Of a stretch of 5,166 bases of DNA, positions 3,522 to 3,924 are shown in pieces (within the stretch, counting starts at the first letter, position 1; each line of letters begins with the position of its first letter). This DNA comes from a virus (Duplodnaviria > Heunggongvirae > Uroviricota > Caudoviricetes): positions 1-5,166 of IMG/VR virus record IMGVR_UViG_2548876865_000013; one strand, given 5' to 3'. The notes under the pieces were generated by a model that saw only the letters and a program-made list of their open reading frames with translations, was not told where the DNA came from and did no database searches. The translations under genes were made by a program, and so were the position numbers.

Positions 3522-3653
3522 TCACCCCACCAGCCCTGCCGAATTCAACGTCATCCATGCCATAGAAAGAAGAAGAGCAATCAGCGTTGCTGAAAATGAA
3601 ATGCAGACAATGACCCAGAGGATTTCCCCCAGCATTATGAGTTTGCGTGACAT
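3522..3653 (-). CDS. Small single-TM hydrophobic peptide, 43 aa (paralog A), not in ORF track
   Basis: Hand translation: ATG 3653..3651 preceded by AAGAGGT at 5 nt spacing, to TGA 3524..3522, giving MSRKLIMLGEILWVIVCISFSATLIALLLSMAWMTLNSAGLVG. Its last codons (GGG CTG GTG GGG TGA) form the SD for Rz. It is 25/43 identical to the peptide at 3793-3924. Confidence 0.55.
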   Translation of the reverse strand: MSRKLIMLGEILWVIVCISFSATLIALLLSMAWMTLNSAGLVG

Positions 3654-3792
3654 GATTACCTCTTAATCCCCGTTTACGATTTCAACGCAATGACCAGTTT
3701 TGCCAGCCCATACAGCATCGGAGACACAGCAATACCAACAGCCACCCACTTAATAGCAAAAGCCAGCGCTCTGCTGATGTCATCAGTCACTG

Positions 3793-3924
3793 TCACCCCA
3801 GCAGCCCCGACGAAGACAACATCACCCAGGCGAGGGACAGAAAAAGAGCAACCAGCATTAGTGAAAATGAAATACCTACAATCACGCACAGGACCTTTGC
3901 CGGCGTTATGAGTTTGTCTGACAT
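3793..3924 (-). CDS. Small single-TM hydrophobic peptide, 43 aa (paralog B), not in ORF track
   Basis: Hand translation: ATG 3924..3922 preceded by AAGGGGT, to TGA 3795..3793, giving MSDKLITPAKVLCVIVGISFSLMLVALFLSLAWVMLSSSGLLG. Same length, same SD architecture and 58% identity to the peptide at 3522-3653. Confidence 0.5.
   Translation of the reverse strand: MSDKLITPAKVLCVIVGISFSLMLVALFLSLAWVMLSSSGLLG

Follow-up and report, generated by a model that had tools for sequence, protein, structure and literature searches.

The closest described relatives of the small genes considered here are 43-amino-acid (aa) peptides already catalogued as phrog_4906, as RefSeq hypothetical proteins WP_001280935 and WP_001280929, and as Sakai ECs_1966, also listed as XECs191, with their function unassigned. 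Hücker et al. (2017) placed XECs191 (= ECs_1966) among novel small genes supported by ribosome profiling (Ribo-seq), with a predicted inner-membrane helix (PMC5597208). Two lysis proteins are further points of reference: the R endolysin of phage 933W, which has been used experimentally as a signal-arrest-release (SAR) endolysin, and Mu releasin gp25, a 99-aa DUF2730 protein with N-out/C-in topology and a 73-aa anionic cytoplasmic domain (both PMC9239132). The stretch analyzed here (the window) is 5,166 nucleotides (nt) of a Caudoviricetes virus, positions 1 to 5,166 of IMG/VR record IMGVR_UViG_2548876865_000013, and it carries two phrog_4906 members, Y1 (pepA) and Y2 (pepB), in tandem between the endolysin gene R and the spanin genes Rz and Rz1. 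An initial annotation, made from the sequence alone, treated these two open reading frames (ORFs) as novel, which the catalogue entries above contradict. We demonstrate that both are genuine, conserved, and selected genes, sited and expressed with the lysis genes, and their tandem arrangement is ordinary phage mosaicism.

Small genes between R and Rz

The R stop and the Rz start are 702 bp apart (Table 1), close to the 700 bp first estimated, and the space between them holds four small one-helix ORFs alternating as X1-Y1-X2-Y2. The initial annotation recognized the two ORFs of equal length but overlooked X1 and X2. The canonical layout in other prophages is R, a 60-aa X, a 43-aa Y, and Rz. Y1 and Y2 are both on the minus strand and are paralogous, as proposed, with 25 of 43 residues identical (BLASTP E = 5e-14); a direct repeat of 148 nt encloses them (3520-3667 and 3791-3938, 76% identical, spaced by 271 nt). 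The strong Shine-Dalgarno sequences (SDs) described for the two genes are present (AAGGGG and AAGAGG, each 5 nt 5' of ATG), and the downstream copy does supply the SD of Rz, which is contained in the last pepB codons (GTG GGG TGA), with the Rz ATG 7 nt past the pepB stop. The junction of X1 and pepA is similarly compact: the X1 stop is 2 nt before the pepA ATG, and the last X1 codons hold the pepA SD.

Each Y peptide contains one strongly hydrophobic segment at residues 11 to 29 (best 19-aa Kyte-Doolittle window, 2.7 to 2.9), and the AlphaFold2 model of pepA is a single helix of residues 3 to 42 (predicted local distance difference test score, 85.5), in line with the one-helix membrane peptides first described. 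The basic residues are confined to the N terminus of each peptide, and the predicted topology is therefore N-in/C-out by the positive-inside rule. Both match the phrog_4906 hidden Markov model (HMM) over essentially their full length (aa 1-43 of pepA and 2-43 of pepB); pepB is positioned directly before Rz, as is usual in the family, and pepA is displaced from Rz by X2 and pepB. An identical pepA peptide occurs in 80 IMG/VR loci, and an identical pepB peptide occurs in loci L090 and L172 to L179.

X, X1, X2, Y, and Z had no matches in Pfam (E ≤ 1 for Y), NCBIfam, or PADLOC, including none at E ≤ 1 to the PADLOC defense and exclusion families for X, X1, Y, and Z, in agreement with the earlier view that the peptides are unlike lambda S, the S21 pinholin, and Hok/Gef-type toxins; they resemble no other characterized family either. 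In Rfam, the window returned just a chance-level DicF match. The possibility that Y is a duplicated Rz transmembrane domain (TMD), SAR segment, or holin fragment was considered and rejected, the scores being no higher than those of shuffled sequences; the best comparison with Rz N termini has p = 0.014 as one of 40 tests, and Y has no periplasmic domain such as an i-spanin would have. Full-text literature searches found no functional study of these peptides, which are mentioned only in the XECs191 entry (PMC5597208).

The X family is a second group of small one-helix peptides. X itself is a 60-aa gene (MGKYKRILLRLTMKNGLELKAPVTDDISRALAFAIKWVAVGIAVSPMLYGLAKLVIALKS), and X1 and X2 belong to its family by HMM matches together with a C-terminal P-x-L-[YW]...L-x-x-A-x-K motif. 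The X1 C terminus resembles that of X (BLASTP E = 1e-3), a longer X1 ORF matches phrog_6632 at E = 1.3e-12, and the ratio of nonsynonymous to synonymous substitution rates (dN/dS) of the X1 core is 0.07 to 0.14 against loci L170 and L010. X2, a candidate gene, is a 5'-truncated copy of X directly 3' of pepA; it may start at a GTG that shares bases with the pepA stop (GTGA), and PGAP calls it in L001 as a 51-aa version with a TTG start. Z is a 28-aa X-like peptide of L001-type cassettes. Comparison of X with Y by hhalign (probability 12%, E = 0.0025, 17 columns) is a hint of distant paralogy that we do not claim.

A 90-aa ORF at 3946..3674 with a full-length match to phrog_3246 (E = 1e-57) was rejected as a real gene, since it reads Y in the +3 frame and then runs on into X2. 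The X2 region accounts for matches to phrog_1115 (E = 6.9e-24) and phrog_4493 (E = 3e-16) on aa 52 to 90 of this ORF. In almost every variant the +3 frame of Y is open, since the NTN codons of hydrophobic residues are there read as NNT, which is never a stop, and phrog_3246 appears to be built from such miscalled ORFs as a composition artifact.

Table 1. Lysis-region features in the window
Feature	Position	Strand	Evidence or remark
Endolysin R, 177-aa phage lysozyme with N-terminal SAR-type segment	4217..4750	-	PF00959, E = 2.3e-24
Terminator-like hairpin, 15 pairs and T-run, immediately 3' of R	4094..4126	-	Also in canonical cassettes
X1, 31-aa one-helix peptide, MISQLPNWKFLLVWSIPFLWVVSQLIVAIKG	3927..4022	-	phrog_6632, E = 6e-5
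Y1 (pepA), predicted 43-aa single-pass membrane peptide	3793..3924	-	phrog_4906, E = 4.5e-21
X2, C-terminal 38 codons of 60-aa gene X	3674..3796	-	phrog_1115 and phrog_4493 matches
Segment common to both parental cassette types, recombination joint inside	3672..3790		blastn overlap
Y2 (pepB), predicted 43-aa single-pass membrane peptide	3522..3653	-	phrog_4906, E = 1.6e-12
Rz i-spanin, 164 aa	3020..3514	-	PF03245, E = 6.7e-51
Rz1 o-spanin lipoprotein, embedded in Rz	3109..3294	-	PF06085, E = 5.3e-21

Conservation, selection, and expression of Y

The length of Y is constant at 43 to 44 codons over a range of about 50 to 100% identity, with 11 protein variants among 170 surveyed loci and, in the protein database, dozens that are 43 aa long. 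K4, W33, and L36 are invariant, and G17-I-S-F-S21 is near-invariant. Codon comparisons indicate purifying selection in most divergent comparisons, with dN/dS values of 0.08 to 0.15 between the O157 and 933W types (dS ~0.53) and of 0.13 to 0.5 against the most divergent members (L170 and L180).

The Y member of the O157:H7 Sakai prophage Sp10 is ECs_1966, located between the antirepressor gene and Rz. In uninduced Sakai it has RNA-seq and Ribo-seq values of 30.0 and 12.6 reads per kilobase per million mapped reads (RPKM), a low signal; the corresponding values for the holin ECs1962 of the same cassette in the same condition are 27.1 and 10.9 RPKM (PMC5597208 supplement). As these values are nearly equal, expression of Y in uninduced culture follows that of the late lysis genes, with nothing to suggest that it is expressed separately in the lysogen. 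A search for sigma-70-like promoters between R and Rz found none on the coding strand; the search for type I toxin signals likewise gave no coding-strand promoter, one weak site on the plus strand (below the number that chance would give), and no Rfam family, which leaves room for an undescribed sRNA.

A separate observation concerns the opposite strand. A weak extended -10 promoter-like site is present on the antisense strand at the pepA start (3918-3947, plus strand), and the hairpin at 4094-4126 has a plus-strand T-run; the two might delimit an antisense RNA of X1, ~170 nt long, a lead only, as promoter-like sites are below the chance expectation.

Origin of the tandem pair

By its alignments, the window is a recombinant of two cassette types joined inside X. 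Positions 4266-3672 match the L001-type cassette (R-X1-Y-X2-Z-Rz) at 97.1%, positions 3790-3468 match the L005/L090-type cassette (R-X-Y-Rz) at 96.3%, and the two matches (blastn) overlap only at the 119-bp X segment, 3790-3672, which is why the joint is placed there. Two Y genes are present because the left part (R, terminator, X1, Y1, and X2) and the right part (X, Y2, and Rz) come from different cassettes. The end of R and the hairpin (4266-4068) are also ~85% conserved in L005, L006, and L007 (blastn).

A first survey covered 170 Y-containing loci, with complete and end-truncated loci of the same type counted together. About 80 are R-X1-Y-X2-Z-Rz and about 77 are R-X-Y-Rz, with a few having R-X1-Y-Rz, R-(ant)-Y-Rz (the 933W type), or R-X-Y-X2-Z-Rz. 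Y is single copy in 169 of the 170, the window being the exception. A look-up of the exact pepB sequence finds the X1-Y1-X2-Y2 array in at least eight assemblies with two different downstream packaging modules and up to 2.4% divergence, which shows that the array is a genuine variant passed on by inheritance rather than an artifact of assembly. The R-Rz interval is, more broadly, a mosaic of mini-genes shuffled by homologous recombination.

In L090 (2263-3133), which has the parental pepB-type cassette, X and Rz contain frameshifts and the 43-codon Y is intact; this prophage looks to be decaying.

Distribution and cassette contexts

The Y family is confined to accessory prophages of E. coli and Shigella. 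There are 276 phage records with a Y match, each in one place and often with the gene unannotated, and most are Shiga toxin (Stx)-converting phages, including 933W, phi24B, and Shigella Stx phages; X is in only 14 phage records. The region is matched by 2,079 of 5,426 complete E. coli genomes, with up to 11 places per genome, where a match is to some part of the 781-nt R-Rz query region, Y included. A profile search of 1.84 billion representative proteins matched 27 clusters and gave no distant relatives and no functional lead, and pattern scans of one genome per species, at the peptide and the DNA level, gave no relevant match.

Y is directly upstream of Rz, with a gap of 7 to 11 nt, in 933W, Sp10, the canonical cassettes, and the window, and in 933W it remains beside Rz although ant cargo is inserted in the R-Rz interval. 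The pairing of Y alleles with Rz-TMD alleles merely reflects this close linkage and says nothing on co-adaptation. Y is often preceded by a gene of the X family (X, or its relatives X1 and Z), and the X1-Y unit is always downstream of an endolysin. The most divergent Y cassette is organized as Phage_holin_8, Phage_holin_3_7, a soluble GH108 endolysin with no N-terminal hydrophobic segment, ANT, an X1-like gene, Y, a 51-aa lipoprotein-like ORF, HNH, and terminase. As X1-Y is present in this unrelated cassette, it travels as a module, independent of SAR endolysins and pinholins.

The P27-terminase-type E. coli prophages L170 (2861-3322) and L180 (2811-3332) have X1-Y followed by the 51-aa lipoprotein-like ORF, which has an LLVGC lipobox and belongs to phrog_7528. 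No Rz/Rz1 is called in either of them anywhere between the endolysin and terminase.

Holin and endolysin of the prophage

The initial annotation noted that no holin is upstream of the endolysin in the window. This is an effect of where the window ends: contigs L173 and L177, which are 99.96% identical to the whole window, extend further and code for a 71-aa PF04971 class II holin ~0.7 kb upstream of R, preceding R with a DUF1327/YdfR gene and a reverse-strand 90-aa ORF between them. The holin is identical to 933W S at 70 of 71 positions and has a MYQM dual start, and the window R is identical to 933W R at 167 of 177 positions (94%). With a 933W-like holin just outside the window and a 933W-like SAR endolysin, the cassette is a normal pinholin/SAR-endolysin/spanin cassette with extra small genes, and no substitute holin is therefore needed.

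Other features of the window

The 90-aa ORF at 4856-5128 (plus strand) is transcribed opposite to the lysis genes and is located between the holin/YdfR genes and R. It is a full-length member of phrog_2411 (E = 1e-58), is annotated as "hypothetical protein" in L001, and matches the anti-silencing protein Mip below threshold (E = 0.037); its counterpart in L173 overlaps the 3' end of the DUF1327 gene. Downstream of Rz, a 74-aa ORF (2799-3023, minus strand) overlaps the Rz stop with its start codon (ATGA), matches positions 100-172 of 291 of phrog_2571 (E = 2.8e-28), and is kept in this location in L001, L090, and L172 to L179.

Between the lysis and packaging modules are a 61-aa gene of the DUF3950 (YlcI/YnfO) family (1977-2162, plus strand) and a 53-aa hydrophobic ORF with apparently two helices (2304-2465, minus strand), of which a version of 45 to 46 aa is called in L172, L173, L177, and L178. 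An exact lambda-type cosN, GGGCGGCGACCT, is present at 1769-1780 (minus strand), upstream of the Nu1 small terminase gene (1593..1045); the sequence has 0 occurrences in 200 shuffles.

Possible roles of the X and Y peptides

Tentatively, and with slightly more doubt than conviction, we interpret the X and Y peptides as accessory inner-membrane peptides of the late lysis operon with a lysis-related role. The genes would belong to the Q-antiterminated late transcript of S, R, and Rz/Rz1, with read-through at the hairpin (4126-4094), and the small ORFs would be translated from their own SDs in tight succession. The peptides would then insert in the inner membrane, N-in/C-out, as dispensable accessory lysis factors, with the conserved V-G-I-S-F-S/GxxxS face packing against transmembrane segments of S, R, or Rz; alternatively, they may add to membrane depolarization, resulting in tuned lysis timing. 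For this prophage, both late co-transcription and any role in lysis are what we infer.

Several observations weigh against this interpretation. Lambda and Qin lyse or are organized without such genes, and the number of small ORFs varies from one to four per cassette, so any role is non-essential. A strong terminator-like hairpin lies between R and the peptide genes, and the R-Rz interval hosts obvious accessory cargo (ant in 933W), as expected of a moron site. The Sakai Ribo-seq signal is low and may be distorted by multi-mapping among the many lambdoid prophages, and dN/dS between the pepA and pepB groups is ~0.8 to 1.2, suggesting weak constraint or fast divergence. Literature searches found no experiment linking X or Y peptides to lysis.

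A site of variable cargo bounded by a terminator-like hairpin is also where a lysogenic-conversion moron could reside, and the peptides would then be a prophage-expressed superinfection-exclusion factor or small membrane toxin, unrelated to lysis. The movement of the X1-Y module between unrelated cassettes and the origin of the Ribo-seq signal in uninduced cultures are compatible with this, and tandem small hydrophobic ORFs are typical of type I toxin loci. We regard it nonetheless as rather unlikely: there is no promoter-like site on the coding strand, expression is equal to the level of the late holin gene, as spontaneous induction would produce, the junction with Rz is tight and SD-sharing, and no Rfam antisense-RNA family and no toxin or defense match in PADLOC, Pfam, or NCBIfam was found. 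A factor specific to the SAR endolysin is improbable, although the initial annotation suggested such a release factor and membrane-embedded peptides encoded downstream of a SAR-type R, so closely related to that of 933W, speak for it. Y (with X) would hold or release the endolysin as the Mu releasin does, but it has neither a Pfam match nor a soluble domain such as that of gp25, it keeps with Rz and not with R in 933W, its similarity to the SAR segment does not go beyond shuffles, and the X1-Y module is also found beside the soluble GH108 endolysin and unrelated holins.

The position of the Y stop 7 to 11 nt before the Rz ATG, with the Rz SD inside Y, raises the question of whether the small ORFs are translational-coupling leaders that deliver ribosomes to Rz, their peptides being functionless, and dN/dS values near 1 between some Y groups are consistent with this. 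We give little credence to it, as other comparisons indicate purifying selection and the mid-helix residues are conserved, the Rz start is free of any stable masking RNA structure (z = +1.4), the gene after Y in L170 is a different one, and Y1 does not adjoin Rz in the window or in L001-type cassettes and is intact in more than 80 loci. The substitute holin/antiholin or pinholin pair offered in the initial annotation drew on the presence of one-helix membrane peptides in a lysis cassette with no holin inside the window. It is now largely refuted and highly improbable, given the dual-start class II holin just upstream in the same prophage, the single copy of Y in nearly all cassettes with the tandem layout a product of recombination, and the lack of similarity of Y to the holin or to any holin family in Pfam.

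If the accessory lysis role is nevertheless correct and Y modulates lysis, the timing of phage and Shiga toxin release would be affected, and the pinholin/SAR-endolysin/spanin pathway, which is considered well understood, would have a new component; Y is in the lysis cassette of most Stx-type E. coli prophages and of almost every sequenced Stx phage, and is often unannotated. It is a doubtful but conceivable extension that the X/Y peptides are an unrecognized class of lysis-cassette components, companions of the Rz/Rz1 genes in most Stx and related lambdoid prophages, setting lysis timing and Stx release via in-membrane contacts with the pinholin, SAR anchor, or i-spanin; lysis could then be tuned by the number of copies and the combination of alleles, as in the X1-Y1-X2-Y2 array. 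Otherwise, the annotation is corrected in that phrog_3246 is an apparent artifact, real small genes are missed in 933W-type records, and the R-Rz interval is a recombination-driven mosaic. What stays of interest is a conserved mini-gene that is very common in the lysis cassettes of Stx phages.

Comparison with known systems

Type I toxins (Hok/Gef, Ldr, TisB, Ibs, and ZorO) are like Y in size, in having a single hydrophobic helix, and in occasionally forming tandem copies in prophages. They differ in that Y has no promoter of its own, antisense RNA family, or toxin Pfam match that could be found, and its genes are packed SD-to-stop in a late operon.

Class II holins (S21-68/S21-71 and 933W; PF04971) are, like Y, small inner-membrane proteins encoded in this cassette whose helices have faces of small residues (GxxxS type), and Y could plausibly influence membrane depolarization as they do. 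However, they have two TMDs, 68 to 71 aa, and a dual start, and Y has one hydrophobic segment and 43 aa, with no Pfam match and no sequence similarity to the cassette holin. Mu releasin gp25 shares with Y a single TMD, an accessory status, and a location downstream of a SAR endolysin gene, and it modulates lysis without being a holin; in contrast, the helix is essentially the whole of Y, which has no DUF2730 or other Pfam match and is also found alongside a soluble endolysin.

P2 LysA, P1 LydB, LydC, and LydD, and T4 RI are non-essential membrane proteins of lysis genes that tune timing, which is the functional class that we suggest for Y. They are not known to be homologous to Y, and they are larger or have several TMDs or periplasmic domains (partly from PMC9025707). 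The closest system remains phrog_4906 itself, whose members have the same length, the same position before Rz, and the same predicted single inner-membrane helix as the two Y peptides of the window; the window departs from the family norm in having two members instead of one, and nothing essential differs.
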